Of a stretch of DNA of 48,387 nt, positions 1,051 to 47,097 are shown piece by piece. The stretch covers positions 1 through 48,387 of the IMG/VR virus record IMGVR_UViG_3300035544_000029. The stretch is one strand, 5' to 3'. Each line of letters begins with the position of its first letter. Position 1 is the stretch's first letter. The notes under the pieces are model-generated. The model had not been told where the DNA came from. It saw only the letters and a program-made list of their open reading frames with translations, and ran no database searches. The DNA is from a virus. Its lineage: Duplodnaviria; Caudoviricetes. Both the position numbers and the translations under genes were made by a program.

Positions 1051-1368
1051 TCACATCCTCATTTTAAAATACGTCATTCCGTTAGCTTCAAAATATTCAA
1101 CTGCCCGGACTACATCCCCGATAACTATCTCCTTGCCTTCAATATAGGCATCTCTGGCGGCATCAAAAAACGGGGGAGTGCGCTCAGGATAAAGCAAGGT
1201 TATTTCATTTCCGGCCTTGTACCAAATATCTCCGGCTTCGTCAATATATGCGTAGCCATTCCGAGACGCTTCTAATTCAGCCAGCCTGTCCGGCCTTACA
1301 TCAATACCTGTGTGCCTGACCGCATCCTTGAGGGTCATTAACACCTTAACAATCCTAAATTTTTGCAT
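1051..1368 (-). CDS. hypothetical protein
   Basis: ORF in tightly packed minus-strand series. Confidence 0.65.
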   Translation of the reverse strand: MQKFRIVKVLMTLKDAVRHTGIDVRPDRLAELEASRNGYAYIDEAGDIWYKAGNEITLLYPERTPPFFDAARDAYIEGKEIVIGDVVRAVEYFEANGMTYFKMRM

Positions 1369-1379
1369 AATTTACTGTA

Positions 1380-1700
1380 TTACTGTATTACTGTTCGGTT
1401 CTTAATCTCTTTGAATGGTAGCAGGGAGAAAACTATCTCCGCATTGTCAATGATAAATTTTCTCCATTCCCATATACTCCCCATCGTCCGGGGGCATCCA
1501 AACACACGCTTTAAATAACGTTTTAGGCGGCGTTTAGTGTATATCCCGGCAAATCTCTGTACCTCATGCCCTGACTCTGTGGAGATGGTTAAAATTAGTT
1601 CTATTTTGCCGGGATGGGAGTCCATTGTGATTACCCTGGTCAGTATCCGGCCATTCTTTGCGGCCTGTTTAAATAATATTCTTTGTTCTATAATGTCCAT
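1380..1700 (-). CDS. hypothetical protein
   Basis: ORF in tightly packed minus-strand series. Confidence 0.65.
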   Translation of the reverse strand: MDIIEQRILFKQAAKNGRILTRVITMDSHPGKIELILTISTESGHEVQRFAGIYTKRRLKRYLKRVFGCPRTMGSIWEWRKFIIDNAEIVFSLLPFKEIKNRTVIQ

Positions 1701-1758
1701 GATTTTTGTTTTTACTTGTTCCGATTTTTAATCGGAGGGTCTTCATAAAAACCCTCCC

Positions 1759-2085
1759 TTAATTACCTCTGTCAGCCCATTGTTTGGGTATATAACACTC
1801 TTTAGTCCTATCCCCGGCATTTCTCAACCATGAATCAACAAAGGGAGTGCGTGTATCAGGGTGAAACAATCTTTTAGCGCTCACTTTATCAAATGTCAGA
1901 GCGTAATAAAGCCCCCTTTGTTTGACAAACTTAAATCCCTGCCTTGTTAGAGCCATACATAGCTTAGCAAATTGATATTGTTTGTCTGCCTGTGTTTTTT
2001 GTTGTCCTGCTGTCTTCATAGTTTTTTTATTATTATCTAAGCAACATCTGTTCTTTGTAAGCGAAGTATGGTCCAGCGTCTCCAC
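1759..2085 (-). CDS. hypothetical protein (true start probably MKTAG near 2019)
   Basis: ORF track; the downstream ATG avoids overlap with the next gene. Confidence 0.55.
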   Translation of the reverse strand: METLDHTSLTKNRCCLDNNKKTMKTAGQQKTQADKQYQFAKLCMALTRQGFKFVKQRGLYYALTFDKVSAKRLFHPDTRTPFVDSWLRNAGDRTKECYIPKQWADRGN

Positions 2086-2284
2086 CTTCCCAATTAAAAT
2101 AAACTACACTTGAATCCGTTACGATAGCGAAGCCACCCACATCAAACAAGGGGAACCATCCATGAAATTTTTCCTGTCTTTTATTGCAAATATCTACAAG
2201 AATTGCAGTAAATTGTGGATTGTTATTTAATTCGGTTGTACTCTCACAGCCAAAATAAAATAAAAGATTTTTCATTGCATTCAT
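2033..2284 (-). CDS. hypothetical protein
   Basis: ORF track, AT-rich leader. Confidence 0.6.
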   Translation of the reverse strand: MNAMKNLLFYFGCESTTELNNNPQFTAILVDICNKRQEKFHGWFPLFDVGGFAIVTDSSVVYFNWEGGDAGPYFAYKEQMLLR

Positions 2285-2309
2285 AGCAGTAATTTTTAAT
2301 TGTTATTTG

Positions 2310-3135: not shown

Positions 3136-3231
3136 AACTTCTAATTTTTATAGATTAATATTTTGTTAAATAGGTTGGAGGGTCTTACAAAAGATATCCC
3201 AACCTACTACTCTCACATGCACATAAAGGTA

Positions 3232-4431: not shown

Positions 4432-5232
4432 AGCCCTTTTCCTGCGTCCACCAAATAAAAACTGTTAAAAGAAAGTTAATGAACACTAAAGAAAGTTAAA
4501 GCGTTTAGCCGGTGAACGTATCATTTTAAAGATCAAAGCAGAGCGCCCGACAGGCGCGGGTTTCGTCTCGTTCCGCCACGGGAGAAACAAAACAAACAGA
4601 CTGCAAAGATTACACAGTTGTATTTGCCCACACAGTTAAACGGGCTTTGCCCACCAAAACAAAAGACCCTCCACCATCACACCAAGCCGCAGCACCCGGA
4701 AGCATACAAGCACACACCGAACACCAAGCAGTCAAAATAAAAAGCTGAAAATTTGAAAGGCAAACCGGTTCCGGCATTTGGCGAGCGACCGGGGGTGTCT
4801 TCGCCCAGGGGGTGAGGGCGACTATTTGCAGGGGGATTATCCCATATACCCCCCACTACAAGAAAAAATAACATCTATATAACTGCTTGTTATCTCACTA
4901 CAAGAACCTGATATTTCACATTCATAGTACTACAATAAAGCCTATTGGCTGATTGTGGCTGTCCCTTGTAAGTTAAATAAGGTTAATGCGGTGGTGTATT
5001 GTTTGGGTTATTGTTATATTTGGGTTTTATAGACCCTCTAACGATGTTCACGAATAATATATGTACACGTAACGTGAACGAGGATTAACTTTGAACACGA
5101 TTTAAGGGGATTAAATATAATTTTGGTAGTAGTGGATAGGTGGAGACGAGTTAAGCTAAATTTTGGGCTTATTTTGAATAAATTGATATTTCAGTAGTGT
5201 ATATACGGAAATTACATTCAAACAGGTGTGAA

Positions 5233-6438
5233 CTACCCATGAGCTAAAGACTCATGGGCTTCGGGCTTCACAGAGGAACGGCCTTTCAAAAGATTGGTTC
5301 TTACTTCCTCTCCACCCGTGTAATCGACAGTTCCTGCCGATATATGGTTTAATCCGAAACGAAGAATATTGATAGCGGCATTAACATCACGGTTATGATG
5401 AGTATGGCAAATAGGACACTCCCACTCACGGACAGACAAATCTTTAGTCTGTTTGTTGACATATCCACAGACATTACAAGTCTGCGAGGAGGGGAAGTAT
5501 CGGTCTATTTTCACAACCTTTTTGCCGTTCCATTCTGCCTTGTAGGTAAGCATGGAAACGAAGCTACCCCAGCTTGCATCAGTAATGGATTTGGCGAGGT
5601 GACGGTTTCTCTCCATACCCTTTACATTCAAATCCTCGATGCAGATGGTATCATATCTTCTAACAAGGGAAATGGAGCACTTATGCAGATAGTCTGCACG
5701 ACTATTAGCAATCTTATCGTGAAGTCTGGCAACTTTGAGCTTTTGGTTTTCAAACCCTCTGCTGCCTTTCTTCTTACGGGAAAGATGCTGCTGTGCTTTA
5801 GCAAGTTTGCGCTCGTATATTCTTGTGTAGCGGTTATTCTTAAAAGTCTCTCCCTCGGAAGTGATAAGCAAGTCCTTCAAACCCATATCAACACCAATCG
5901 ACTTATTAGTCTTTTCAAGCGGAGTTACGTATTCTTCTTCTGTAAATACAGAAACGAAATACTTGCCGCTTGGTGTCTTGGAAATAGTTACCTTGCCGAT
6001 TTTGCCTTTTATCTCACGGTGTACACGGCACTTGATACCCTCCTTGAACTTGGGTATAAAAAGCCTGCCACCTGCGACAGATGCAAATTGCGGAACGGTG
6101 AAACTATTTTTGGAGCGCTTGGATTTGAACTTAGGAAACTTCGCACGCTTCTGAAAGAAATTAGTATAGGCTACTTCAAGACTTCGTATAGCGAACTGCA
6201 AGGTTTGAGAATTTACTTCTTTAAGCCATGCGGTTGCTTCTTGCTTCTTCAATTCGGTAAGAGTCTTGGCTTGTGCGTAATAATTATCGCTTTTACCAGT
6301 GAGTCTATATTGCTCTTTACGTTGATTGAGAAAGTAATTATACACAAATCGAGCGCAACCGAAATGCCTTGCCAGCAAATCGGCTTGCACCTTATTCGGG
6401 TACAGTCTGAACTTGTATGTTCGATTAATCTTTCTCAT
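5233..6438 (-). CDS. tnpB: RNA-guided endonuclease TnpB
   Basis: MRKINRTYKFRLYP start, HTH, RuvC GVDMG / IEDL / RDVNAA, CNVC..CPIC zinc finger. Confidence 0.95.
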   Translation of the reverse strand: MRKINRTYKFRLYPNKVQADLLARHFGCARFVYNYFLNQRKEQYRLTGKSDNYYAQAKTLTELKKQEATAWLKEVNSQTLQFAIRSLEVAYTNFFQKRAKFPKFKSKRSKNSFTVPQFASVAGGRLFIPKFKEGIKCRVHREIKGKIGKVTISKTPSGKYFVSVFTEEEYVTPLEKTNKSIGVDMGLKDLLITSEGETFKNNRYTRIYERKLAKAQQHLSRKKKGSRGFENQKLKVARLHDKIANSRADYLHKCSISLVRRYDTICIEDLNVKGMERNRHLAKSITDASWGSFVSMLTYKAEWNGKKVVKIDRYFPSSQTCNVCGYVNKQTKDLSVREWECPICHTHHNRDVNAAINILRFGLNHISAGTVDYTGGEEVRTNLLKGRSSVKPEAHESLAHG

Positions 6439-6498
6439 ATCGCTTACAAAGATAGTAATTATTTTGTAAACAACAAAACTTTTTCGTATATTTATGGC

Positions 6499-6903
6499 AT
6501 GGAAGAAAATTATAATCACAAAAATAGGCATAAGTATTACCTAAAATGTCACCTTGTATTTTGTATTAAATACAGAAGAAAAATACTCAATGGTGATTTT
6601 GATAACGACATCAAAGCAGTATTTCTGTCAATAGCGGATAATTCTGATTTCAATATTGATATTATGGAAACAGACAAAGACCATATACACTTTCTAATTA
6701 GTTATCCACCAAACATATCTGTAACATCAATAGTTCGGAAACTAAAACAAGAGAGTACAATTTTTGCTTGGCACTTATATAGTACGATGTTGAGAAAATA
6801 CTTTTGAAAAGAGAAAACATTATGGTCGGATGGATACTTCGCATGTTCCATAGGTGAAGCAAATCCAAACACAATAAGGGAGTATATCAGACAACAAGGA
6901 TAG
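6499..6903 (+). pseudogene. tnpA: Y1 (HUH) transposase TnpA with an internal TGA
   Basis: HLVFCIKYRR and DHIHFL motifs; KYF*KEKTLWSDGYF with TGA at 6805-6807 where W is expected; the frame continues to IREYIRQQG* at 6903. Confidence 0.9.
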
Positions 6904-6973
6904 TGCCTTACATCCCACAAGCTAAAGACTTGTGGTTTTTACGGCACTTGCTATAAATTGTTTAATTTAAAAA

Positions 6974-9733: not shown

Positions 9734-10036
9734 TTATACTATCCTTGTTAAAGCCTGGGCTTGTGATACCATATAATATTTATGACCCTCTAATTCAATC
9801 TCCGTGCAAGATTGTTTGGAAGCCACAATAGTTTCTCCCACCTGTACATCCATGGGGACAAATTCAATCTCTTCAAAGCCCCTGCGGATGACGATTCCGG
9901 GGCCAACGGCCACAACTTTACCCTTACAGAACCGGGTATTGGAAGTAGCTTCAGGAATAATAATACCTGTCTCTGTCTTTTTCTCTTCGCTCATCTTCTC
10001 AAAGATGATTACGTCATTTAATGGTTTGATGTTCAT
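9734..10036 (-). CDS. groES: co-chaperonin GroES
   Basis: MNIKPLND...KTETGIIIPE...GKVVAVGPG...VQVGE. Confidence 0.9.
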   Translation of the reverse strand: MNIKPLNDVIIFEKMSEEKKTETGIIIPEATSNTRFCKGKVVAVGPGIVIRRGFEEIEFVPMDVQVGETIVASKQSCTEIELEGHKYYMVSQAQALTRIV

Positions 10037-12374: not shown

Positions 12375-12462
12375 TGGTAGCGGGAGATGGAATCGAACAT
12401 ACACTTTCATTCGATGTCTCTAGGTTATGAGCCTAGAATGTTGCCAATTACACCACCCCGCA
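12375..12462 (-). tRNA. chimeric tRNA-Met(CAT)-like gene with an aberrant variable/T region
   Basis: GCGGGGTGGTGTAATTGGCAACATT-CTAGG-CTCATAA-CCTAG ... GTTCGATTCCATCTCCCGCTACCA; the 5' T-stem strand does not pair. Confidence 0.6.
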
Positions 12463-13208: not shown

Positions 13209-13244
13209 AATATTCAAATTTATTATAAATACTACGATATATTT

Positions 13245-13305
13245 AATCGAACCATCATACTCCTTCTTACGAGACAGGGCTGTAACCAACTTCAGCTATC
13301 CCGCT
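13245..13305 (-). pseudogene. 5' part of an interrupted tRNA (anticodon loop CT-CGT-AA)
   Basis: AGCGGGA-TA-GCTG..CAGC...GATGG-TTCGATT; pairs perfectly with CCATC-TCCCGCT-ACCA at 12375-12390. Confidence 0.75.
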
Positions 13306-13377
13306 TGGTCGGGGTTTTTGTCAATCTCTCTGAGTGTTCCCCGTGACCCTCAGTTCATCCGGGCGCTACCCGTCATC

Positions 13378-13454: not shown

Positions 13455-13456
13455 TT

Positions 13457-13516: not shown

Positions 13517-13609
13517 GCTTTTGTTTTCTATGTTCTGTTCTTATTCACCCAACAGAATCATTTAGAACAAAGTTAATGTTTTTGACCCTCTAATCAAAGC
13601 CAATAATGT

Positions 13610-33877: not shown

Positions 33878-36536
33878 TAAAAACAGGATAGGTTCGTTAA
33901 GAAAGTCTATATCAGAGATTATAGAAGTCTTGGAGGCTCCGTCTCATTTCAAAGACGACTATACTGGTACTGACATTAAAAGCTCGGTAAAGGTAAAGAA
34001 AAATGCCTTTGTCCGGGCTAAAAATTTATTGGCAAATCTCCAAACAATACAAACAGAGGACGCACGAAACTCAGACGCTCCGTGGTATGGCGAGACCATA
34101 CGCAAGCTAAACTCTGCCGCTGAATCAGCTATGACAGAGCTTTCTGATATTATGAAGAAGCCTGTTAACACACACGAGAGCGGAACGTCTGTTAATAGTG
34201 CTATTGATGCCAAGCAGGAAGCCTATGACTACATGAATGAGATATTTTATGGAGTTATAGAGCTAAATAGCGTGTTGGAGTCCATAGAAAACGGGGAGGG
34301 TGTCAAATCATTAAACACCAACGATTACAAGATTGGATTGGCTGAAGACCATGCTTATCGTGGTTTTTATGCTGAAAAGAAAAGAAAGATTAACCCTGGG
34401 TACAATGAGAAATTGGACGCCGTAGTTATTTCGTATGACGGTACGGTAGGGGAGATTATTGAATGCTATGGGTTGCGAATAGCCTTACCTAAGATTCCTA
34501 AGAAAACCCATTTTGAGAATTATCGTAAGAAATCCCATCTTCAATATTGGGAGCGCCCCAAGCTACCAGAGGGTCTTGCCAAAGAAACAGCACACCTCTA
34601 CCTAGACACCATAGAAGAAGAGTTCAGGCGTAGGGATGAAGGCTATTGGTTTATGAATAATGGAGAACCAGAGTACATTACAGGGTCTCATTATATGCTG
34701 TTGGCACATTGTAAGGCCGATGCAGAGTCAGGGGCTTATTTCCACTTCAGAAAAGCACACAGAGACTTGTTTTATTTCCTTGAAGCATCATGGGTGGATA
34801 ATCGGGCCTTGGGGATAATGTTAGGCAAGACAAGGCGTACAGGAGCGACACATGTGGCCGATGCCTTTGCTCTTACAAAAGCTATTAGCACCCGTGGAGG
34901 TAAATTTGGTATGACTTCCAAGAAAAACACGGATGCCAAACGTGCTTTTGAGAAACTATCTTTGATGTTTCGGGAATTACCGTTTTTCTTTAAGCCCCTC
35001 AACACGGGGGAAGGATTCTCAAACTCTTTGAATTTCTCCACACCATCGAAACGCACAACAAAGAACTCCCAAGGGAAAGTAACGAAGTATGATGACCTCA
35101 ATACTATTATAGACTACGAAGCAACGTCAGAGGACAGTTATGACGGTAGTGCATTGAATTTCTATATTGCTGATGAGTTTTCCAAGTGGCCGGAGGGAGA
35201 AGATATTCTTTCGCATTGGAGTAAGGTTAAGAAGACCCTCTTATCGGGTGGAATCATCCGTGGAAAGGCGTTCATCCTTTCAACCGTAGAGGGTGTTACA
35301 GGCGAAGCTGCTGACAGCGATTCAGCAAAGAACGGAGACAGATTTAAGGGGTTATTTTACGATTCAGACCTTACTACAAGGAATGAGAAAACACGCAAGA
35401 CGAAGTCCGGACTGTATAAGATTTTTATTTCAGCCTTGGATAATTTCGGAGGGTTTATTGACAAATACGGAAATTGCATAGCAGAATCTCCTGAGAAGCC
35501 AATAGAGGGGGTAAATGGGGAAAGCATCACTATCGGCGTTAACGAACATCTACACAACGAATGGGAAGCATACAAGAATGACCCAGCTCGCTTGAATGAT
35601 GAGATGCGTAAAGACCCTATAACAGAAGACGATATGTTTCGCATAGCATCAAAAGACTCTATGTTTAACGTTATCCGTCTGCAAGACCAGATAGACTACA
35701 ATGACAATTTCTATCTATCAGAGGGTCACAAAGGATATATTCAAGGTAATTTCAGGTGGATAGACCAAGACCCAGAAAAGGGAGCAGAATTTGTAGAACA
35801 GGTAAATGGTAGGTTTCAAATAATGCCATGGCTGTTAGATTATCCGTTTGCCAATGAGTTTGTCGTCAGGGGAGGTAAGAAAGCTCCCAAACATCCCGAT
35901 TTAGGGTGTCTCGGAATTGACCCATACAAAGTTAATAGGGCAAAGGACGGAAGAGGTTCTAAGGGGGCTATTATAGGATATATTGGAGCTAACCCATACG
36001 AGGGTCTGCCAAAGGAGCAGTTTTTCCTTGTTTACCTTGCCAGACCTCAATCAAAGGATATTTTCTTTGAAGATGCGTTAATGGCAATGACATATTGTAG
36101 TATGCAGGGATTGATTGAGAATAACATTCCTGAATTACTAACGGTCATGTATAAGAGGGGCTTAACAAAATACTCCATGCGAAGACCGGATAGGAACAAG
36201 CTGAGTTCTGATGAGTTGATGTATGGGGGTATTCCGGCCAACGATACAAACCTATTAGCCAACCAGGCATCATTCCTTGAAAAGCATATTAACGACCACA
36301 TAGGATATGCAAGTAATAACGACCATAGACCGATTGGGGAAATAGGGACTTGTCCGTTCAACGACTTGCTGTCTGATTGGATTAAGTTTGACCTGTTAAA
36401 CAGAACAAAATATGATGCCACTGTGGCGGCCTGTTTGGCCGTATATGGGACACAAAAATATTTATTGAAGAAAAGCAAGGCATGGGAGAAGCACAATACA
36501 AGCTTTAAAGCTTCAGACTTCTATGATTTTGTTTAA
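33864..36536 (+). CDS. terL: terminase large subunit with an N-terminal extension
   Basis: YITG.HY, KTRRTGAT (Walker A), YIADEFSKW (Walker B), GIDPY nuclease motif, IENN, YDATVA. Confidence 0.92.
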   Translation: MKANNKNRIGSLRKSISEIIEVLEAPSHFKDDYTGTDIKSSVKVKKNAFVRAKNLLANLQTIQTEDARNSDAPWYGETIRKLNSAAESAMTELSDIMKKPVNTHESGTSVNSAIDAKQEAYDYMNEIFYGVIELNSVLESIENGEGVKSLNTNDYKIGLAEDHAYRGFYAEKKRKINPGYNEKLDAVVISYDGTVGEIIECYGLRIALPKIPKKTHFENYRKKSHLQYWERPKLPEGLAKETAHLYLDTIEEEFRRRDEGYWFMNNGEPEYITGSHYMLLAHCKADAESGAYFHFRKAHRDLFYFLEASWVDNRALGIMLGKTRRTGATHVADAFALTKAISTRGGKFGMTSKKNTDAKRAFEKLSLMFRELPFFFKPLNTGEGFSNSLNFSTPSKRTTKNSQGKVTKYDDLNTIIDYEATSEDSYDGSALNFYIADEFSKWPEGEDILSHWSKVKKTLLSGGIIRGKAFILSTVEGVTGEAADSDSAKNGDRFKGLFYDSDLTTRNEKTRKTKSGLYKIFISALDNFGGFIDKYGNCIAESPEKPIEGVNGESITIGVNEHLHNEWEAYKNDPARLNDEMRKDPITEDDMFRIASKDSMFNVIRLQDQIDYNDNFYLSEGHKGYIQGNFRWIDQDPEKGAEFVEQVNGRFQIMPWLLDYPFANEFVVRGGKKAPKHPDLGCLGIDPYKVNRAKDGRGSKGAIIGYIGANPYEGLPKEQFFLVYLARPQSKDIFFEDALMAMTYCSMQGLIENNIPELLTVMYKRGLTKYSMRRPDRNKLSSDELMYGGIPANDTNLLANQASFLEKHINDHIGYASNNDHRPIGEIGTCPFNDLLSDWIKFDLLNRTKYDATVAACLAVYGTQKYLLKKSKAWEKHNTSFKASDFYDFV

Positions 36537-36582
36537 ATTTGCAAAAAAGAGTTAATTTTAGTATATTTCAAAAAATTGTTGT

Positions 36583-38934
36583 ATGAATTATTTTGCTCCT
36601 GATATGACTGCTGGGAATGCCGAAAAGGATTCGCCAGAATACGGGCTAAAGATGGCACGCTTTATTGAAAGCGAATGGTCATTGCCACGCATACAAGAAC
36701 GTAGAGCCAAGATGAAGCTTCTTCGCTCTCACATGGATGGGACAGTAGATGCTTCACACCTGAAGCCTATGTTTAAGAATGCCAAAGACCTATCAGCAAT
36801 GAGGGTTAACTGGAAGTATAGCTCGGAGGTTCCACGTATTGTAAATTCTATTATTGAGGGTTTTTCATACGACAAATACAGAACGTCTGTAAAAGGCGTT
36901 GATATGCACTCTCAGGAGAAGCGCAGTAGGTTCAGGAGAGAGAAGATGAAGGCCATGGTCACAAAGCAAGAAGCAGAGGCTTTGACGAACATGACCGGGA
37001 TGGACTTCAGGCCGCAGGGTATGGTTCCTCAATCCATGGAAGAACTTAATCTTTATATGGAATTGGAATACAAGCAGGCCACAGAGATAGCTGCTGAATT
37101 AGGCATACAGAAAGTTATGGACTATGGGGAGTGGCGAGAGACTTTTAATCATATCGCTGAAGATTTAGCATTATTCAGAACAGGAGTGGCTAAGGTTGTT
37201 CCAGACCCTCAAACTGCCCTGAAATTTGAATATGTTGACCCAGAGTCATTCATATATAGCCAAAACGTAGAGAAGAATAGGAATTACAGTGAGGCATGGT
37301 ATTTTGGTCAATATATGCGTATGCCAGTTACGGAGTTTGAGCGCATGACCAAGGGGAAGATACCTCCTGAAAAACTCGAACAGCTTATTGGCCGGTATGG
37401 CTACACCCTACATAAATGGGAGAGTATGTCAGAAGAAGAAAAGGAAATATCAGTAGATGTTATTCGATTCTGCTTCAAGACAAATCGTTACGACATTAAG
37501 AAGAAGAAGTACAATAAACATGGAGGGTACAAATACATAGACAAAGACGACTATTGGACTCCACCGGAAAATATGAAGTCTGAGGTTGTCCGTATTCCTT
37601 ACGAAGTGTGGTACGAGGGTCTATATGTTCCTGGTACAGATTTCGTAGCCAACTACGGCTTAATGGATAATATGATGAGAGAGCCAAAGAACGCTCGCAA
37701 GGCCGTAGCTCCATACATCCTCTACCGATTGTCATCCGAAGCTATTGGCGAGAAGATTGCTGAGATTTGCGATGATATTTATATCACACAGATTAAGCTA
37801 CGACAGTTGACTGTTAAGATGAAGCCCAAGGGATTTGCCATTGACATTGACGGTCTCGGTGATTTGGACTTGGCTGACGGGACGAAGCTATCTACCCTTG
37901 AAAGGGTCAGAATTATGAGGGAGGATGGAGACTTGCTATTCTCAGGTTCATCATTAGTCGATGAGATGCAAAATGTTAGGTCTCCCATACATGACCTGCC
38001 GGACGGAACGGGTCAGGACTTGGTTAATCTACTGAATGTTTACAACCACCACATGAGTAGATTGCATCAGATAACAGGTATTAATCCACAGGCTTCGGGG
38101 GCGGCCCCTCCAAGTAGGACTTCTGCTGATGTGTACCAAGGAACGTTGGCTGCCAGTCAGAGGGTCGTTAACAACATTTTCAATGGTTTGTTAAGCATTC
38201 AAAAACGCGCAGGAGAGGCCATATTAGCACGTCTTCACTCCGCATCAATGCTTGGAGAGACGGAAGACATTATCACGTCTATTTTGGGCGAATACACGAC
38301 AAATATGATAAAGGAAGTTGCTAATCTCAAACATTATCAATTTATCGTTAATGTTGACCTGAAGGCAACAGACGAAGAGCGTAGAGAACTTATCGAATCA
38401 TTGGCTGGAGCATTACAAACAGGTTCTATTGCCATTGAGGATAAAATAGACATTGAAGAGATAGAGAATTTGAGATTAGCTAAACAGATGATTAAGCTAC
38501 GTCAGAAAGCTCGGAGAGAGCAAGCTGAACGTGATGCTGCCATTAATCATCAGAGACAGTTAGAGCAAATGCAAGCGGCTGAACAGGCCAAGCTTCAACG
38601 TGAACAGGCCATGGCAGAGATAGAGAACATGAAGGCTACTGCCGAATACGAAATGAAAGCAAGGCTTCAAGCGTTTGAGAGCCAGGCTAAACTTCGTGAA
38701 ATATCTCTGAAAGGGCAATGGGATGTGGCAGAAGCCAATATCCGGGCACGGGCACAGCACACGAACGATGCCTACAAGGAAGACCGAAAAGATGAACGTT
38801 TGAATCAGCAAAGCACGCATCAGAGCGAATTAATAGAACAACGTCAGTATAACACACGTCCCAAAACTTTTGAGAAGCCTAAAGTGGATAATTCAGGCAT
38901 TGATGAGTTTGAGGGTCTAACACCTAATATTTAA
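36583..38934 (+). CDS. portal protein
   Basis: 783 aa directly after terL; ELNLYMELEYKQ.TEIA.E, YVDP, ITGIN, Q-rich coiled-coil tail. Confidence 0.88.
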   Translation: MNYFAPDMTAGNAEKDSPEYGLKMARFIESEWSLPRIQERRAKMKLLRSHMDGTVDASHLKPMFKNAKDLSAMRVNWKYSSEVPRIVNSIIEGFSYDKYRTSVKGVDMHSQEKRSRFRREKMKAMVTKQEAEALTNMTGMDFRPQGMVPQSMEELNLYMELEYKQATEIAAELGIQKVMDYGEWRETFNHIAEDLALFRTGVAKVVPDPQTALKFEYVDPESFIYSQNVEKNRNYSEAWYFGQYMRMPVTEFERMTKGKIPPEKLEQLIGRYGYTLHKWESMSEEEKEISVDVIRFCFKTNRYDIKKKKYNKHGGYKYIDKDDYWTPPENMKSEVVRIPYEVWYEGLYVPGTDFVANYGLMDNMMREPKNARKAVAPYILYRLSSEAIGEKIAEICDDIYITQIKLRQLTVKMKPKGFAIDIDGLGDLDLADGTKLSTLERVRIMREDGDLLFSGSSLVDEMQNVRSPIHDLPDGTGQDLVNLLNVYNHHMSRLHQITGINPQASGAAPPSRTSADVYQGTLAASQRVVNNIFNGLLSIQKRAGEAILARLHSASMLGETEDIITSILGEYTTNMIKEVANLKHYQFIVNVDLKATDEERRELIESLAGALQTGSIAIEDKIDIEEIENLRLAKQMIKLRQKARREQAERDAAINHQRQLEQMQAAEQAKLQREQAMAEIENMKATAEYEMKARLQAFESQAKLREISLKGQWDVAEANIRARAQHTNDAYKEDRKDERLNQQSTHQSELIEQRQYNTRPKTFEKPKVDNSGIDEFEGLTPNI

Positions 38935-38937
38935 GCC

Positions 38938-39213
38938 ATGGCTCCACCGAAAAAACCATACTCCCAACTCAGCGAGAGTGCTAAGTGGTACAGGAAAAAC
39001 AAAGAGGGTCGTAAAAAGAAAGCGGCCACAGACAAAAAGGTTAATGCTCGTCCAGAACAGCGTGCTAAGAGAAGTGAGCTAACAACGAAGAACAGAGCAT
39101 ATGACAAGAAACACGGAAAGACAAAGAGAAAGGGGAAGGACTATGACCATAAAGTAAAGAGGTATGTGAAGTCTTCCGTAAACCGTGGCCGAAAAGGAGA
39201 GGGTAACAGATAA
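38938..39213 (+). CDS. basic protein with an HNH-like remnant
   Basis: K/R-rich; GKDYDH......S.NRG. Confidence 0.55.
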   Translation: MAPPKKPYSQLSESAKWYRKNKEGRKKKAATDKKVNARPEQRAKRSELTTKNRAYDKKHGKTKRKGKDYDHKVKRYVKSSVNRGRKGEGNR

Positions 39214-39247
39214 CTAAAATAAAAAGCAAACGTAAAAAGAAATAGTC

Positions 39248-39622
39248 ATGGCAAAGAAGAAACAAGGCCCAAAGGCCGAACATCAACGTGGAACCAACAG
39301 GTCTTTTGCTTATCAGAAACAGCAACTTGGAACACAGCTATATGAATATGCAACAGGACATACATCGGAGTCCATGAAAAGGATAAAAAAAGCAAGGTCG
39401 CAGGGCAGAATAGCCGGAGGATTAGAGCAGGAGATAAAGGCAGCAAGAATTATTAAGAACAATGGAAGACCTGGTGAGTGGATGCCTAACACAAAAGCAT
39501 CTACGTATGATGCAAGCAATATTCAGACATGGATGCCTCCTCTAAAAGTCCCTAAAAGGATGACAGGAAAAAGTAAAATATCTACAAATAAAGTCAAAAC
39601 GAAAAAGAGAATTAAGAAATAA
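39248..39622 (+). CDS. basic hypothetical protein
   Basis: K/R-rich ORF. Confidence 0.5.
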   Translation: MAKKKQGPKAEHQRGTNRSFAYQKQQLGTQLYEYATGHTSESMKRIKKARSQGRIAGGLEQEIKAARIIKNNGRPGEWMPNTKASTYDASNIQTWMPPLKVPKRMTGKSKISTNKVKTKKRIKK

Positions 39623-39623
39623 A

Positions 39624-39647
39624 AAAAGCCCCATTATCGGGGCTTTT
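39624..39647. terminator. bidirectional terminator
   Basis: aaaagcccc-attatc-ggggctttt. Confidence 0.75.
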
Positions 39648-39737
39648 CTCGTCTTAAGGAAAACAGGAGTCGAAATTAAGAAACAATTTATCAAACCTTT
39701 GTTATACTTAATTAAGTTAAATGACTCCTGTGTATTG

Positions 39738-40094
39738 TTAAAATGGCAAACTGTCTTCTTCTTCCGGCTCAGGCGGAGCTACTGCATCATTGCTCTGTGG
39801 CGCACTGCTAAGAACCTCCACGTTAGCAAGCTTCAAGTCAGGGAAATACCTCGTTGTTCCGTCTTTCTCCCACTTACGGCCCCCGAGGAAAATACTAACA
39901 TTTACCTCATCTCCTACTTTTAGAGGGTCTAACTTATCCACATTATCCTGAACAGCATCAACGGGGATATAGTCTGAAAATTCCGGCTTATCTGTATTCT
40001 CTACAAATACAACAAGCACTCTTTTCTTGAATTTCTCTGTAATCTGTTGTGTCTCTCCTACATGGTGAACGACACCTTTTAAGTCGATTTTCAT
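39738..40094 (-). CDS. DUF3127 family SSB-like protein
   Basis: TQQITEKFKKR.LV...LKVGDEV.V...L.GR.W...YF; acidic tail ending in LPF. Confidence 0.85.
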   Translation of the reverse strand: MKIDLKGVVHHVGETQQITEKFKKRVLVVFVENTDKPEFSDYIPVDAVQDNVDKLDPLKVGDEVNVSIFLGGRKWEKDGTTRYFPDLKLANVEVLSSAPQSNDAVAPPEPEEEDSLPF

Positions 40095-40188
40095 ACAATT
40101 TACTTTTAATTTGTGTTTAACGTCTAAGGGCAAATGTAATGTGTTTGTTTTCCTTACGCAACACAATGTTTGTTAATATATCATAATT

Positions 40189-40578
40189 TTATTGCATTTG
40201 ATTTTTCACATCAAAATCACTTTCTTCAATAAATTTATATATCTCATCAGTTATCCAGTCTGCCAGATACGCTATGGGTTCATCATTATTGAAATCAGCC
40301 ACAATGCCACGGTCTGAAGCTATGAAGTTGGCGGCATGAATAGACTCATGTGTAATTGTGCCATGAGTTATTTTTCTATAACTATATAGAAAATTAAAAA
40401 TGACAGCGTAAGCGGCACGCCCATTGTAATTTACGGCCAATGTGTGACCATAAGGTTCTTCGTCTTTAAAATCAGGTATGTGCTTTTGCAATTCACTGCT
40501 ATCATTGGTAAGAAAAATTAGTAGCGTACCACGGTATAGCGGAATATGTACTTCTTTTTTATAGAAATGTTTTTCCAT
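40189..40578 (-). CDS. hypothetical protein with an HExxH motif
   Basis: ITHESIH...DEPIAYL. Confidence 0.65.
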   Translation of the reverse strand: MEKHFYKKEVHIPLYRGTLLIFLTNDSSELQKHIPDFKDEEPYGHTLAVNYNGRAAYAVIFNFLYSYRKITHGTITHESIHAANFIASDRGIVADFNNDEPIAYLADWITDEIYKFIEESDFDVKNQMQ

Positions 40579-40581
40579 GGT

Positions 40582-41031
40582 TTATTTTTTATATTTAAGA
40601 TATTCATGTCTTAATTCTTCTATCTTATCAAATTCTTCAGGATAATTTTCTTTCCTCCATTGCCTTCTTTGGCCTTCGTGCTTAGAATATCCAAGCTCAT
40701 CAAACTCTTTCAGTTGATAGCACCGTCTTTTAGAAGCCTCAAAAGATTCTACGGGGAGCGAGAAATGAGCACAATCAGGCCAGCCGCCTCGGAGTAGCTT
40801 ATGAGCACCAATCCCATAGTGGTTAGCAATGCAAAACTGTTCACCTGATGGCATAGTTATTCTTACAGCAGATAGGATGGCTTGAAGTGATGGGGCATTT
40901 AATTCGCACTCGTAATTGTACCACCAAAGCGGCTTGTCTTTGTTGGCCTTAACTTTGCACAAACCAAACTCAACACGAACAGGTTCCCCCTGCCATTGAT
41001 ACTTTGGATAAACTACTGTTTTCATTTTCAT
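40582..41031 (-). CDS. hypothetical protein
   Basis: 149-aa ORF in a minus-strand block. Confidence 0.6.
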   Translation of the reverse strand: MKMKTVVYPKYQWQGEPVRVEFGLCKVKANKDKPLWWYNYECELNAPSLQAILSAVRITMPSGEQFCIANHYGIGAHKLLRGGWPDCAHFSLPVESFEASKRRCYQLKEFDELGYSKHEGQRRQWRKENYPEEFDKIEELRHEYLKYKK

Positions 41032-41214
41032 AATAATATATGTTTGTTAATTTTTGTGTAATAGTATTTTGTTTGACCCTCTAATGGGAATTTATGATGG
41101 TTTTATAGCTCTTATTTTCCTTGTGTGCTACTTTAGTAGTATTATTGTTTTTCATATTATTAATATTAGATAAGTTATTAATGTATGTAAGAAAAGAAAA
41201 ACGTTAACGAAAAG

Positions 41215-41850
41215 ATATAGCAATCCCCTTGCTGGGGGAGGAGTGTTTGAAAGAACTCCTTACATTAACACACACCTTTTAATCGTTTGCATGGCAAGAA
41301 CAGTGCTTCACTCAGAGTCATCATCGCAAACAGAGCTAACCTGTTTGTAACTACTCTTCGCTATACCCAGGGAACAACTTACCTACTGTATGTTACACTG
41401 CAAAGGATTTTGTGTTAGCTTCCAACTAAATAATGTTTGTGCAGCAATTTAACATAACTTGTAGAGAGGAACTTTAGCCTCAAATCCACTACGTTTTTCC
41501 CAATTCTCTATCAGACAAACCGTATATGCCCGAGTCTCCGCTATGTGTGCTATATTTGCCCTATCGGGGACACCTCTCCGCTATGTTTAGGAATTATTTC
41601 ATCCTTGCAGATACTACCCGACTTCTGTCCCATTAAAAACGTTCAGCCTTCATGGGAGTACACGGGGCTACCGTGGGGCAATCGTTTTTTGGGGCATAAA
41701 AAAACCCCTTACTCGTTAGCAAGAGGTTTCTTTGGTAAGGCCCCTTGCTTGTTGTGTGAGAAAAATCGATGCCAAGAAAACAGGGATTTTTCGCAAGCAA
41801 GAAGGGCGAATTTCTTTATTTGTTTTCTTAGTCAAGATTTTCCTCACACG
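41215..41850 (-). ncRNA. candidate structured non-coding RNA(s)
   Basis: no credible ORF; promoter TATATTTG (41854-41861, minus), long inverted repeat, terminator and several hairpins. Confidence 0.4.
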
Positions 41851-41935
41851 CCACAAATATAATTACTTTTAATGGAAAATAAAAGAAAAACACAAAAAAC
41901 TTTCACAAAAATTTGTTTTTAATTGTTAAAGAATG

Positions 41936-41943
41936 TATATTTG
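41936..41943 (+). promoter_or_regulatory. Bacteroidota -7 element TATATTTG
   Basis: upstream of the scaffold/capsid operon. Confidence 0.6.
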
Positions 41944-41973
41944 CGATGAATAGATATTTTAAATAGAAGTGTT

Positions 41974-43023
41974 ATGGATAAAGAACCATTTAGCTTTTTT
42001 ACGAAAGCAAGTGACAAACCGGAAGAAACTCCAAAACAGGAAGAGCCTGTGGTAGAGAAGAAGGATGGTAATGAAGACCCTCCGGTTGAGGCCCCAAAGG
42101 ATGAGCCTGAAGAGCCGAAGGAACCACAAGAGCCAACGGACGATCCAAAAGAGGACAAGTTCGAGGGTCTGACAAAAGAAAAGATTTTTGAAGCATTAGA
42201 TCAAGATGAGAACGCTTATCTTGAATACCTGTCAAAGAAGACAGGAAGAGAATTGACAAGTCTGGAAGACCTGAAAGAAGTAAAAGAGGTTGAAAAAGAG
42301 CCTGACCTTCCCGAAGATGTAAAAAAATATTGGGAATTTAAGAAAGAAACAGGCCGAGGGTTCAATGACTTCTTGAAAGCAAATAAAGACTGGACAACCG
42401 AATCCAAAGAAGCTGTCGTAATGGAACACATACGGCAGAAGGAGGGGTTGGAAGGAGAATTGCTGAAAGAAGCGTTTGAACTTGAATATAGACCCGATGA
42501 AGATTCTTCTGACAGGGAAAGACGTTTGGCAGAGATTCGTTTAGAAAAACGGTATAACCAAGCGTTGCGAGACCTAAAGGAAAGCCAGAGACAATATGCA
42601 CTTCCTACCGATGAAAAGGACGGCCAGCGACAAGCGGCAGCCCAAAGGCAAGTGGAGGCAGAAAAGTTTCAACAAGGCATGACGGAAGCGGTTCGTGGTA
42701 TTGACAGACTTGCAGTGGATGATTTCTCGTATAAGGTGGAGAAAGACCCTCAAATTGAGCAAAGATTTTCATCTATCGAAAACATCCTTGCCAAATACAA
42801 AAAGGGAGACTCCTATGATTTTAAGTCTTTGGCCGAGACTATTATCGCCGGAGAGAATCATGCACAGTTTGCTAAGGCTTATGCCGAGCATTACAAAAAC
42901 AAAGTAGTGGAGGACGAAATGAAGAAAATGTCACATCAGCAAGACCCTACCAAGGCACAGCCAAGTGAAGGGCCACATGATGTGAGTATTGACAGAGTAA
43001 AATCGTTCTTCAGAAAAGTTTAA
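41974..43023 (+). CDS. putative capsid scaffolding protein
   Basis: acidic P/E-rich N-terminus, LPEDV.KY.EF.KETG; directly upstream of the capsid gene. Confidence 0.7.
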   Translation: MDKEPFSFFTKASDKPEETPKQEEPVVEKKDGNEDPPVEAPKDEPEEPKEPQEPTDDPKEDKFEGLTKEKIFEALDQDENAYLEYLSKKTGRELTSLEDLKEVKEVEKEPDLPEDVKKYWEFKKETGRGFNDFLKANKDWTTESKEAVVMEHIRQKEGLEGELLKEAFELEYRPDEDSSDRERRLAEIRLEKRYNQALRDLKESQRQYALPTDEKDGQRQAAAQRQVEAEKFQQGMTEAVRGIDRLAVDDFSYKVEKDPQIEQRFSSIENILAKYKKGDSYDFKSLAETIIAGENHAQFAKAYAEHYKNKVVEDEMKKMSHQQDPTKAQPSEGPHDVSIDRVKSFFRKV

Positions 43024-43043
43024 CGATTAAAATTTAAAAACAC

Positions 43044-44450
43044 ATGGCACTTCAAGATTTTGAATATCTATCCCCTGCTGACGCGATTAACCACGGTTTA
43101 ACGCCCACCGCAGAGAATTACATTGACTTGTATGACTTCTCTACTTACGCCCGCCCGGACGTTCGAGCAGAAGCCATTCGCAAGTATGACAACACAGTTG
43201 GAGGGTTCCTCAAAAAAATGGCAAGCGTAGAACAGTTGAAGTCTGATAAGTATATCTGGACTGAGCTGGAACGCAGAGCCGTAACTTATGATGACGCTGT
43301 TCTGACTGTTGGTGCAAGTAACGTATTGACCCGTGATGCTTCAGCTCCTGTTGCTTTTAGGTTGCACGAGAAAGTGAAGCTGTACACCTCAGCGGGAGCA
43401 GGAACATTTATTGTAACTGCTGTAAATTCCTCTACTTCCGTAAATCTCGGTACTTATGACCAAGGTTCTATTGACCTTGTAGCAGGATATACCGCTCCTA
43501 TTACAGGTATTTATACGTATTCTCTTGGTATTGAAGTTGGCAAAGGTTCTGCCGGAGCAGATTTTACCGCAGGATTAAAACTTCCTTATTCAGTTCATAG
43601 TGTACGTCCGGCCATTACCCGTAACGTATATACCGAGCTTGGTTCTACACCTCCTGTTGCAGGATGGGTAAGCATTAATGGTGAGTTCCGTTGGTTCTTA
43701 CATGAAATTGATGCAACCCGTGAGGACACTCTTGAGATGATCGAGAAGAAAGGTATGGAGGGTGAAGCTCCTGCTGTTGGTTCTGATGCTGAAACTCTTG
43801 GATTGCAAGGCACTCAGGGTGCTTTCGACCAGATAGAATCTCGTGGAGCTACATGGCTTGGACAAATCACTACTGCCCAAGATTTGGAAGACCTTCTGAA
43901 GCACTATAATAAAGTGCAGGGTGCTTATGTGAACTTGTTCATGTCAAGCATTGACCAGTCATTGGCCTTTGATAGCCTTGGCCGTCAGTTTAACGCTTCC
44001 TATGGAGATACCTCTGTCCTTGACAACCACGTTGGCGAGTATATGATGTCTCAGGGTGGAGGTAAGATTCTGAACCTCGGAACACAAGGATTTATCCACG
44101 GTGGATATACCTTCCTGCATCAAAACTCTAAGTATTTAACAGAAAATACTTTCCGTGGCAACGATGCTATTCCTGAAGCAGACAGGATGCACTTTTTCAC
44201 TATACCTCTTGGTATGACTCCTGTAATGGATGGAGACCAGAGCCTTGCCGCTAATCCTCGTACCGTTCAGCGTAACTACATGACCAAGATGGAGCTTCGT
44301 CCATTCAACTCATGGGCTGAGGGTGGAGCAACATGGTTGGCAAATAAGACCAACGGTGATGACTCCTTCAAGATTTATTTCTTGGAAGAATCAGCACTGG
44401 CTCTTTTCAATGCAGAGAAATTTGTAATCGGAAAAGGAACTGCTGTTTAA
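43044..44450 (+). CDS. major capsid protein
   Basis: 468 aa after the scaffold; W.E..R, G.QG.F..IE.RG, LG..GF..GGY.F; followed by a terminator. Confidence 0.82.
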   Translation: MALQDFEYLSPADAINHGLTPTAENYIDLYDFSTYARPDVRAEAIRKYDNTVGGFLKKMASVEQLKSDKYIWTELERRAVTYDDAVLTVGASNVLTRDASAPVAFRLHEKVKLYTSAGAGTFIVTAVNSSTSVNLGTYDQGSIDLVAGYTAPITGIYTYSLGIEVGKGSAGADFTAGLKLPYSVHSVRPAITRNVYTELGSTPPVAGWVSINGEFRWFLHEIDATREDTLEMIEKKGMEGEAPAVGSDAETLGLQGTQGAFDQIESRGATWLGQITTAQDLEDLLKHYNKVQGAYVNLFMSSIDQSLAFDSLGRQFNASYGDTSVLDNHVGEYMMSQGGGKILNLGTQGFIHGGYTFLHQNSKYLTENTFRGNDAIPEADRMHFFTIPLGMTPVMDGDQSLAANPRTVQRNYMTKMELRPFNSWAEGGATWLANKTNGDDSFKIYFLEESALALFNAEKFVIGKGTAV

Positions 44451-44459
44451 TAATAATTA

Positions 44460-44487
44460 AGGGGAGGGTCATAACCCTCTCCTTTTT
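44460..44487 (+). terminator. terminator after the capsid gene
   Basis: ggggaggg-tcataa-ccctctcc-ttttt. Confidence 0.65.
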
Positions 44488-44520
44488 CTCATTTTATACA
44501 TATATAATCTTAAAAACACA

Positions 44521-45297
44521 ATGGCACAACCAACATCAAACAAAGCACGCACGAGTGCTAAGAACCTCATTAAAGAACGCAGGCCCGCAGTAGATTCGGG
44601 GATGGCTGTGTTCGCATTAAACAAGGGTATTAATTTGCTTATCAGCCCTAAATTCACGTTCATTGACTCAGAGGGTAACAGGACTCATGTGAGATATGCA
44701 CAAGATCAAAACTCTATCTTCGTTGACGAACAGGTGGAGATTGACCCTATTAAGCTATCAAGAATTGTTCTGAATGAAAAGACGGTCATTAAGGACTCTC
44801 TGCTCATGGACTTTCTGCTTATCAATCCGAGTTTCGGCAAATTGTATAAGCTGATTGACCCGGCAGGAGAAGCCAAAAAAGAGATGGATAGGGTGAGTAA
44901 GTTTGATGATGTATGGGATTCTGTACGTCAGTTGTCTTTGGAAAACACCAAGGCATTGAATTTGCTTCTTAATGACGTTTCTCTAAGTCAAATGGCAAAC
45001 ACCACAATGCCTGAGTTGAGGCTGAGTATTAGGAAGATTGCAGAGAAAGACCCTGAAAGAGTTCAGGAAGCCATGGCAGACCCGGTATTGGAAACATTGT
45101 ATCTCTACCACATGGGAATAGCCTTGGATGTTATCAAATACCTACCACGCAGAGAAGTAGTTATTTGGACTGACTCACAAAAAGAATTGTGTAAAGTGCC
45201 GACAAATAAAGAGCCATCAATGTTCGTAGCCAGGCAGCTATTAACGGATGATTTCTTGAAAGCACGAGAACTACTTGAAACAAAATTGAATGATTAA
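44521..45297 (+). CDS. conserved protein downstream of the capsid gene
   Basis: RYA.DQ.SIFVDEQ pattern. Confidence 0.65.
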   Translation: MAQPTSNKARTSAKNLIKERRPAVDSGMAVFALNKGINLLISPKFTFIDSEGNRTHVRYAQDQNSIFVDEQVEIDPIKLSRIVLNEKTVIKDSLLMDFLLINPSFGKLYKLIDPAGEAKKEMDRVSKFDDVWDSVRQLSLENTKALNLLLNDVSLSQMANTTMPELRLSIRKIAEKDPERVQEAMADPVLETLYLYHMGIALDVIKYLPRREVVIWTDSQKELCKVPTNKEPSMFVARQLLTDDFLKARELLETKLND

Positions 45298-46018
45298 CAC
45301 AGTATATAACGTCGTTCAAGAACTCCTTAACAAAAACGGGTACGGGTTACTTACCCCTACCCGTTTTGTGTATTTTGCAGAGACGGCACAGCTAAAGGTG
45401 CTGAATGATGCAATAGAAGAGTTCATACAGAAAAAGCGCAATGCGGCACGCTACGACAGCCCAGAAACTCTTGACACGTTAGAGGCGTTGAAAGAGGTGT
45501 TTTTTGAAAGCACCACATTGTCTCGGGAAGTTGAGGGCACGGTGGAGGCGTATCATCTATTGCCGAGCGACTATATGCGGTGGGGTTCTGCCAATTTGGA
45601 TGACAACACGGAGATTGCTAAACAAGAGGGTCAATATAAAGCAAGGTTGGAACGCAATAGATTTGTAACACCCTCACTATCGACTCCGTACTGCCACATA
45701 GAAAACAATAAGCTGTATGTATATCCAACAAGCATAGGAGCCATTGATGACAATGGAACACTCATACCGTGGGATGAAGTAACTCTCAGCTACTATCGCT
45801 ATCCAAAGAAGCCAAACTGGACGTATCAGACTGTGATGGGAAAACCAGTATTCAATCCTGACAGTGCATTGTATCAGGACTTTGAACTGCCGCAATCTAT
45901 GATGGACAGGTTAATTGTTGAGATAGCAGAGATGGCAGGAGTACATATCAAAGAATCTACGATAGTTCAGTATGTTTCGGCAGCTAAGAATGAGGACTTT
46001 CAAAAAAGTAATAGGTAA
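45290..46018 (+). CDS. head-tail ring / tail tubular protein
   Basis: INTVY..V..LLNK..YG.LTP..F...AQ...YYRYPK.PNW.Y...DFEL. Confidence 0.7.
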   Translation: MINTVYNVVQELLNKNGYGLLTPTRFVYFAETAQLKVLNDAIEEFIQKKRNAARYDSPETLDTLEALKEVFFESTTLSREVEGTVEAYHLLPSDYMRWGSANLDDNTEIAKQEGQYKARLERNRFVTPSLSTPYCHIENNKLYVYPTSIGAIDDNGTLIPWDEVTLSYYRYPKKPNWTYQTVMGKPVFNPDSALYQDFELPQSMMDRLIVEIAEMAGVHIKESTIVQYVSAAKNEDFQKSNR

Positions 46019-47097
46019 TGGCAAAGTTTATATGGAAACCGGAAGTTATTGATTTTGGCTATGAGCCTGGGAACACGAGGGTCATAAAATTCATCCATGA
46101 AGCCACATCTATTACGATTAGTGGAAAGCCGTCATGGTTGGAAGATATTGACGTATCTTTTGACACTTTCAGTGGAGGTAGCCCGGCAAAAGGAACGCTG
46201 ACCGCGACTGTCCGGTTAGACCAAACACGAGTTCAGGAACAGGGGATTATTACCGTACTGTCCGATGCAGAGAGCTATATGATTCCTGTCGTATTCAATT
46301 ACGACTCCGAACACGTTCCTGTGATGGAGATTATTGATAATATCCTTATTTATGCCGGAGACGAAAGTTATGTGGGAGAACGAGACAGGCCCAAAGCTAT
46401 ATTGGCAGCTAAGAGGTGGATTCAGGACAATGCCGGAATATCAGGAACGAATGTAAGGTTTTCAGAAATATCTGTTGATGAGAACAGGGTTCATTTACCG
46501 GGAGATTTTGTTGACTTGCGTGGGGTGTATGTAGTTTCCTCAGATGGATATTTAAGACCCATGTACCAGTCAGACAATATTAACATTGGTCAGGAAGTTG
46601 TTCAGGATGAAGACGCTTTTGCACTCCTGGATGATGCTGGGTATGTTATTAGTGCCTTTGGTCTGACACCGAGGGTCGATAACGAAAACCCATACACTTA
46701 TTATGGTGTAGATGTTGGAGCCATATCTCAACTCGGCATGGGGCAAACAGTATATCAGATAAGAGCCGGAGAAGTTTCTGGGAATGGCTTGTATCGCTAT
46801 GACAAGCAGAACAGGGTTATACTTGTTGATGGCAATGTTATTAAGAACGTGGTGGTAGAATACTTCTCAGACCCTATATTAAGGCATAAGTTGAAGATGG
46901 ACATGGGCGAAATTCGTGTCCATAAACGCTATCAGGAAGCATTGGAGGCACACATCTATTACAAGCTCATAGAGATAAACAGACACGTCCCATTGTATGA
47001 GCGTAACAATGCTTTGAGGGTCTATAAAAGAGCCATGAAACGCGCTCAAATGAAAGGATTAGATTTCAATGCCTTACATCAGGCAATAAAAAGATAA
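46018..47097 (+). CDS. tail ring/adaptor protein with an N-terminal Ig/BACON-like domain
   Basis: LP.DFV....V, VVEY.SD, VHK..QEAL...IYY; beta-rich first ~95 aa with PSWL. Confidence 0.6.
   Translation: MAKFIWKPEVIDFGYEPGNTRVIKFIHEATSITISGKPSWLEDIDVSFDTFSGGSPAKGTLTATVRLDQTRVQEQGIITVLSDAESYMIPVVFNYDSEHVPVMEIIDNILIYAGDESYVGERDRPKAILAAKRWIQDNAGISGTNVRFSEISVDENRVHLPGDFVDLRGVYVVSSDGYLRPMYQSDNINIGQEVVQDEDAFALLDDAGYVISAFGLTPRVDNENPYTYYGVDVGAISQLGMGQTVYQIRAGEVSGNGLYRYDKQNRVILVDGNVIKNVVVEYFSDPILRHKLKMDMGEIRVHKRYQEALEAHIYYKLIEINRHVPLYERNNALRVYKRAMKRAQMKGLDFNALHQAIKR

Follow-up and report, generated by a model that had tools for sequence, protein, structure and literature searches.

The DNA analysed here is a 48,387-nt contig of a tailed phage (IMG/VR record IMGVR_UViG_3300035544_000029; the whole stretch is called the window below) through which the heptamer GACCCTC/GAGGGTC is scattered. 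The heptamer is the fixed core of an asymmetric site of about 23 nt with an A-rich, G-poor tail of 10 nt on the 3' side of GAGGGTC, an extent that is new here. The site is real, strongly selected and clade-specific, and its extended logo is newly resolved. As to its function, replication priming, which was absent from the list in an earlier reading made from the letters alone (the sequence-only reading), is tentatively ranked first.

The window is a single contig with 69 gene calls and a GC content of 39.6%, not the ~37% estimated earlier. It contains 68 exact copies of the heptamer (38 GACCCTC and 30 GAGGGTC on the plus strand), which is its top-ranked 7-mer. The copies are dispersed from 1330 to 47022 on both strands with a mean spacing of 682 nt. 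The sequence-only reading had come to about 67 by hand and all 22 coordinates that it quoted are correct. Its claim of enrichment also stands, but the proposed size (~30-fold, from about 2 expected copies) was too large: an order-2 Markov model expects 3.0 copies, an excess of ~23-fold. Fourteen of the 68 copies fall outside the gene calls, where the density is higher (14 in 6,574 nt, vs 54 in about 42 kb of coding DNA), and the coding copies occupy all six strand/frame classes (23, 5, 9, 11, 1, and 5), as had been said of both strands, intergenic DNA and several frames.

Codon usage had been dismissed as an explanation, and shuffling upheld this. The 54 coding heptamers compare with 4.4 in synonymous shuffles preserving protein and codon usage (maximum 11 in 300; ~12-fold), with 9.1 in a junction null, and with 4.5 in shuffles from which GATC, CTAG, and GGWCC were barred. 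Under a dicodon null, which itself contains the heptamer signal, 13.3 are expected (maximum 24 in 100; ~4-fold). A codon or dicodon artefact is thus ruled out. The counts of the dipeptides involved are near expectation (EG 72/67, DP 34/32, RV 44/39, TL 69/64), so the signal resides mainly in codon choice. The easiest coding opportunities are largely filled (34 of 44): where the residue after Asp-Pro has a codon beginning with C the word is present at 11 of 11 places (1.1 expected), and after Glu-Gly in the same setting at 23 of 33 (2.3 expected). A repeat or transposon family was also ruled out, as only short imperfect matches surround the word. An imperfect 55-nt repeat with the word at its centre does occur at 2907-2961 and 3146-3200, between small early genes; early genes in the vicinity are exchanged between strains. 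The window as a whole strongly avoids CTAG (3 vs 91), GATC (26 vs 128), and GGWCC (1 vs 48), as restriction pressure would give.

Both orientations of the heptamer are equally selected. On the coding strand GAGGGTC is more frequent than GACCCTC in raw numbers (37 vs 17), yet the enrichment is equal (11.9- and 12.2-fold), and each arm shows an excess of either orientation (14.0 and 22.4 on the left, 7.6 and 10.9 on the right). The apparent strand polarity is therefore accounted for by coding opportunity. Overall spacing is random (coefficient of variation, CV, 0.86; P 0.13) and no helical phasing was detected; with both strands pooled and four insertions removed, it becomes slightly even (CV 0.79, P 0.03, post hoc). 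The densest stretch (13300-22400; 22 copies, 2.4 per kb) covers middle genes including those of a sliding clamp, a phosphoesterase, and a Cas4-like nuclease. The major capsid gene has no copy, but it also offers no frame-0 opportunity. TAnnTTTG boxes, a Bacteroidota promoter motif, are not linked to the heptamers (10 of 61 near a site vs 9.5 expected).

The extended site emerged from the one-off variants and the flanks. In the GACCCTC orientation only position-1 variants (40 vs 12.5 expected) and GCCCCTC (10 vs 3.3) are tolerated. The abundance of one-off variants claimed before holds for these and fails for the remaining 17, which sum to 46 (about 55 expected). The flank signature is preserved around variants of the first two positions (z 5.6 and 6.0) but not around those of positions 3-5. 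With strand and codon position matched in the background, the flank bias spans -10 to +6, with T preferred at -10 (z 4.6), -7 (6.6), and -4 (4.5), A at -1 (5.0) and +3 (5.5), T at +5 (4.0), and G at +6 (4.3). The resulting soft logo reads T at -10 and -7, T/G at -4, A/T at -2 and -1, the core, and then t-R-A-y-T-G. The T at -7 persists at 34 of 45 sites outside the dominant frame and at 12 of 14 intergenic ones. Seen from the GAGGGTC strand, the ten bases 3' of the core are A-rich and G-poor (A 4.6 and G 0.8 per 10 nt; background 3.0 and 2.0), and beyond them the composition returns to background. The absence of C adjoining the core is partly explained by the genome-wide avoidance of GGWCC. 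A 14-letter pattern combining core and flanks has 30 copies in the window.

Two other descriptions of the site were rejected. It is not a palindromic GANNNTC site (GACCGTC 3 vs 2.2, GAGCCTC 2 vs 4.2, other GANNNTC words at most 1.8-fold). Nor is it a general hairpin: with the upstream flank the folding energy is -1.39 kcal/mol, compared with -1.09 for random flanks (SE 0.17), which is not significant. This energy does lie below that of shuffles of the sites' own flanks (-0.87 kcal/mol), and GGGT is found upstream of the heptamer 11 times (4.1 expected). A hairpin followed by a T run, with the word in its stem, lies after the capsid gene (44461-44487, plus strand) and a similar one is found at about 1734-1757. 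Two heptamers are thus in terminator-like stems, which may act in termination.

The word is missing from DNA that varies between strains. Four such segments (4.3 kb in total) have no heptamer where 8.0 are expected at the surrounding density (P 3e-4). These are an IS200/IS605-type insertion sequence (IS; 5227-6951, with TnpB at 5233-6531 on the minus strand), an HNH endonuclease insert (12391-13244, minus strand, GC 0.25), a small-gene segment (14583-15457), and an N6/N4 DNA methyltransferase cassette (17248-18128, minus strand, GC 0.32) in which one opportunity was missed. Strain-level contigs of runs X3 and X4 lack the IS and the HNH insert, and in both runs the methyltransferase cassette is replaced. 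One contig of run X3 (30,080 nt) continues for about 13 kb beyond the left end of the window. A tRNA-Met and a tRNA-Leu gene stand on either side of the HNH insert (12375-13453). The sequence-only reading had seen no copy in the IS, the cassettes, the endonuclease insert, the helix-turn-helix (HTH) and KilA genes or much of the tail-fibre DNA. This is correct for the IS, the HNH insert, the methyltransferase, and the HTH and KilA genes; the tail-fibre block (24939-31194) still holds 6 heptamers. The HTH/KilA block has cluster sizes of 3 and 5, like core genes.

The terminase is 29-38% identical to those of Maribacter phage Panino, the Flavobacterium elemo phages, and Cellulophaga and Tenacibaculum phages (Pervagoviridae, Pachyviridae), and the terminase, portal, and capsid block (33864-44450, plus strand) places the phage near Pachyviridae, Pervagoviridae, and Elemovirus. 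A nearer, uncultured clade comprises 22 capsid clusters at 50-97% identity. Its contigs reach 71.5 and 75.2 kb, so the window probably lacks about a third of the genome (~25 kb). The IS-borne TnpB is 95% identical to that of a Bacteroidales metagenome-assembled genome (MAG) and 88-89% identical to Prevotellaceae proteins, which makes a Bacteroidales host likely. The runs that contain the first 5 kb of the window at a share of at least 0.2 (6 of 16) are oil-field or subsurface metagenomes.

The word is restricted to a single Pachyviridae/Pervagoviridae-like clade of Bacteroidota phages. Among relatives, observed and expected counts are 7 vs 0.27 in L029, 4 vs 0.35 in L004, 3 vs 0.33 in L002, 5 vs 0.88 in L026, 6 vs 2.2 in L001, 2 vs 0.89 in L025, and 0 vs 0.52 in L027, and the word is absent from L019, L005, L010, L011, and L012. 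Pooled counts in synonymous shuffles are 9 vs 1.2 for L002, L004, and L029, 10 vs 2.2 for L026 and L001, and 0 vs 0.5 for L019, L005, and L010. The 79 distant loci (35-39% terminase identity) contain 9 heptamers in total and at most 1 each, and six named phages have 2-6 per 50 kb. A TAGCCTC dialect in the word-free L019, L005, and L010 (12 vs 4.5) was only eighth-ranked and post hoc and was not accepted. In genes aligned with L029 there are 7 sites on each side with 3 shared, several gains alter amino acids, and four-fold sites are saturated (0.34 identical). This turnover reflects continuing selection, or drive, in two lineages. Separately, in the near-identical relative L006 the site at window position 45626 is lost through a silent change, and heptamer sites are therefore polymorphic within the species.

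The word was also sought in the likely host phylum: 401 genomes came from the order to which the TnpB-bearing MAG belongs and 401 from its phylum (794 distinct Bacteroidota). It is not hyper-abundant in these 794 genomes, a sample outside which the true host may fall: the maximum is about 230 per Mb (by eye), compared with 1,405 per Mb in the phage. The 14-letter flanked pattern is dispersed and occurs at most 25 times per genome among 401 genomes. In 200-kb slices of four genomes with a high ratio of heptamer to control word, counts stayed near the Markov expectation (36/25.6, 16/15.6, 7/9.9, and 26/15.7; 0.7-1.7x) with no excess of T at -7. These results speak against both a Chi and an uptake signal of the host. 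The sequence-only reading had taken the heptamer for a phage self-mark read by some protein. A selected, phage-specific site is borne out, because the enrichment survives the codon nulls, is absent from strain-variable DNA, shows turnover, and is not matched by hyper-abundance in the host phylum. A modification mark of the methyltransferase type fits poorly because the flanks are soft over 23 nt and the methyltransferase lies in a word-free, strain-variable segment.

The explanation ranked first, which we hold tentatively and by analogy, is that GAGGGTC is the priming site of a phage-encoded primase of the T7 gp4/DnaG type. The enzyme would read 5'-GAGGGTC-3' as template on unwound DNA and start the primer as ACCCUC. 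Six more bases, those with soft preferences 5' of the core, would bring the primer to about 12 nt, and the enzyme would contact the A-rich tail of 10 nt on the other, 3' side. Since each strand is a template at some stage, both would carry sites. The primase gene would be located in the ~25 kb beyond the window. According to one study, T7 primase sites are 5'-(G/T)2GTC-3', binding is affected by exactly ten 3' nucleotides (A/T-rich favoured, G worst at the first), and Okazaki fragments range from 1 to 6 kb (PMC12839067). GAGGGTC ends in GGGTC and so contains the T7-type site, its 3' bias is limited to ten nucleotides like that flank effect, and the density of one site per 1.0-1.6 kb per strand is inside that Okazaki range (PMC12839067). 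More than four A/T among 3' nucleotides 1-8 are found at 62 of the 68 heptamers, compared with 160 of 246 other T7-type pentamers. Among the six named relatives, the three with the strongest hexamer excess (Panino z 15, elemoA z 7.7, ctfjg026 z 6.4) all have a primase or VirE-type gene of their own in the annotation. A GACC excess in these three was not counted, as it is probably a by-product of GATC avoidance.

The results that weigh against priming by a phage primase are substantial. No primase, helicase or polymerase is found among the 67 window proteins scanned. The window has a Rep/O-like gene, repeats, and a single-stranded DNA-binding protein (SSB) of the type found in phi13:2 and Gundel, in whose examined stretches no primase is listed, and this module points to host priming. 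The tolerant core positions are the T and C of GTC, which is thus not the strictest part. Other GGGTC, TGGTC, GTGTC, and TTGTC in the window are not enriched, nor is the T7 -10 element (TA/TG/GA/GG; 19 of 68 vs 67 of 246), and in T7 itself the excess of GGGTC, TGGTC, and GTGTC does not go beyond 1.8-fold. Phage phi38:1 has a primase-polymerase and no strong word (z 5.1). The lack of C beside the core owes something to GGWCC avoidance. Taken strand by strand, the copies are spaced at random (CV 0.95 and 0.96; P 0.52 and 0.56), also with the four insertions removed (P 0.67 and 0.17), and same-strand copies cluster 35-83 nt apart.

The alternatives differ in the protein that would read the site. 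A Chi-like stop, ranked second and a doubtful possibility, would have a helicase-nuclease or exonuclease that degrades from a break halt at GAGGGTC. Word-rich phage DNA would then survive cutting and pieces bearing the word would be favoured in recombination. The core is G-rich and asymmetric, and near-saturation, uneven spacing, and both orientations would suit breaks anywhere in a linear genome. For E. coli Chi, A or G at 3' nucleotides 4-7 has an enhancing effect (best flank TCGAAAA) and T a weakening one (PMC5041463). At these positions the heptamers average 2.19 A and 0.69 T (1.13 and 1.26 expected). The same A-rich tail thus fits Chi's preference for A there, which is why this explanation comes second (PMC5041463), but G is depleted at these positions and not favoured. 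The enzyme could be the host's AddAB/RecBCD, against which stand the low density in the 794 Bacteroidota (about 230 vs 1,405 per Mb), the scarcity of the flanked pattern, and the near-Markov slices without T at -7. It could also be a clade-conserved PD-(D/E)XK nuclease of the phage itself (20415-21323, minus strand, 5 copies), a candidate reader. Its Cys32 is invariant, three C-terminal Cys are nearly so, and a QxxxY motif is present; from these motifs we take it to be Cas4/AddB-like. It has 24 homolog clusters (46-96% identity), two of them on contigs size-matched to capsid contigs of the clade. Two distant homologs (26-30% identity, in 2 of 401 genomes) are in unrelated, word-free DNA, which argues against the phage form, and we know of no precedent for a stand-alone nuclease reading such a word. 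A rather unlikely reading is that the clade carries a private Chi. This nuclease, which has a conserved clade-specific insertion, would stop at GAGGGTC, so that the phage would mark self by sequence alone, with no modified base, and DNA of the host or of competitors that lacks the mark would be degraded.

Another reader could be a phage protein that binds double-stranded sites and organises or shields the genome or tunes transcription. This is ranked third and is improbable. The candidate (24185-24844, minus strand) is restricted to the clade and is predicted to fold as a MarR-like winged helix. Only 7 homolog clusters of it exist in 1.84 billion representatives, two of them on contigs size-matched to clade capsid contigs. 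A strict core with A/T flanks would suit helix and wing contacts, and both the slightly even pooled spacing and the higher density between genes agree with such binding. However, the structural model (pLDDT 73) resembles MarR proteins only weakly (the top Foldseek match has E 7.5e-3, so that none reaches 1e-3), and searches of PDB sequences with this protein and with the nuclease returned nothing below E 0.07. MarR proteins are dimers on palindromes, while the palindromic versions of the heptamer are unenriched and its flanks asymmetric, and there is no tie to TAnnTTTG boxes or to the direction of transcription. Fourth and very improbable is a HIP1-like drive, in which a methyltransferase and biased repair make the word with no benefit per site. 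Nearly saturated easy opportunities, the absence of spacing rules and the fact that both strands start with GA and end with TC, giving a symmetric adenine, would agree with it. Soft preferences out to -10 and +6 are not expected of a methyltransferase site, though, any deficit of near-miss variants is within chance (46 vs 55), and other GANNNTC words are enriched at most 1.8-fold. The methyltransferase of the window (17248-18128), itself in word-free variable DNA, is unlikely to be the reader.

The window encodes a sliding clamp, an SSB, two PD-(D/E)XK nucleases, and the Rep/O-like protein, a double winged-helix protein like replication initiators (22615-23340, plus strand) whose gene contains no copy of the word. 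Directly upstream, at the GC-skew minimum, are four to five direct repeats of ~21 nt (22435-22537, plus strand), possibly an iteron-type origin or an operator array distinct from the heptamer. Three GroES-like co-chaperonin genes (9734-10036, 15869-16120, and 33278-33877) are present without a GroEL in the window. Among the related phages, Panino (L013, L148; PP540027.1) encodes a primase/helicase and a polymerase, and in synonymous shuffles its CTGTGG/CCACAG exceeds expectation in coding DNA on both strands (84 vs 18). In elemoA (L014) AATACC/GGTATT (78 vs 33) and AGACCA/TGGTCT (45 vs 18) exceed the synonymous shuffles. In L018 (MW202828.1, 43747-49895) a 16-bp perfect palindrome occurs 11 times, mostly directly upstream of small genes, and appears operator- or promoter-like.

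In the literature searched, which excluded most subscription papers, no earlier account of the word was found; the one whole-word match of GACCCTC was an unrelated plant-virus paper. The genome itself supplies a 23-position binding logo for a phage protein, for which three candidates are named here. Should the site prove to be a primase site, the phage would have altered silent sites, and a number of amino acids too, to hold a priming map far stronger than that of T7, and primase specificity would be readable from genomes alone. A nuclease stop or a binding site would instead amount to a self mark free of modification. Under either reading the word dates DNA in the clade, since recent insertions lack it.

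Several known systems invite comparison. Like E. coli Chi, the site has a G-rich asymmetric core; at 3' nucleotides 4-7 A is raised and T lowered, as in Chi, but G, which also enhances Chi there, is lowered as well (PMC5041463). The site shows no orientation bias and is unenriched in the sampled host genomes, being about six times denser than in any of them. Stoperators, a feature of cluster A mycobacteriophages, are 13 nt long, lie in promoters and in small gaps between genes, and follow the direction of transcription (PMC9283540). They resemble the present case in being many asymmetric sites spread over a genome and plausibly read by a phage protein (PMC9283540), but here 54 of 68 copies are in genes and the two orientations are equally enriched. 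DNA uptake sequences and uptake signal sequences (DUS/USS) and HIP1 likewise saturate coding DNA in either orientation, show site turnover with amino-acid changes, and are missing from newly acquired DNA. In contrast to these, however, the word belongs to a phage and not to the sampled host phylum, HIP1 is palindromic, and no uptake machinery or cognate methyltransferase was identified here. KOPS differ in polarity, as the heptamer has no polarity switch beyond coding opportunity and both its orientations are enriched on both arms. On the features tested the heptamer does not belong to the DUS, KOPS or stoperator families, and probably not to Chi. Among primases, the NrS-1 primase-polymerase is a phage enzyme that reads a long word (TTTGGTTA) and starts outside it (PMC8718748). 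Its sequence is different, the window has no gene for a primase of that archaeo-eukaryotic (AEP) type, and no genome-wide enrichment of its long word is reported in the text covered (PMC8718748). The sites of T7 gene 4 primase share the GGGTC end of the core, the A/T-rich 3' bias over ten nucleotides, and a density in the Okazaki range (PMC12839067). They differ in that a single 7-mer is enriched here, 12-fold rather than at most 1.8-fold, that the T and C of GTC are tolerant, that the -10 element is missing, and that a primase gene was not found in the window. By this comparison, and still tentatively, a primase recognition site is what the GAGGGTC site may most resemble in the way it works.

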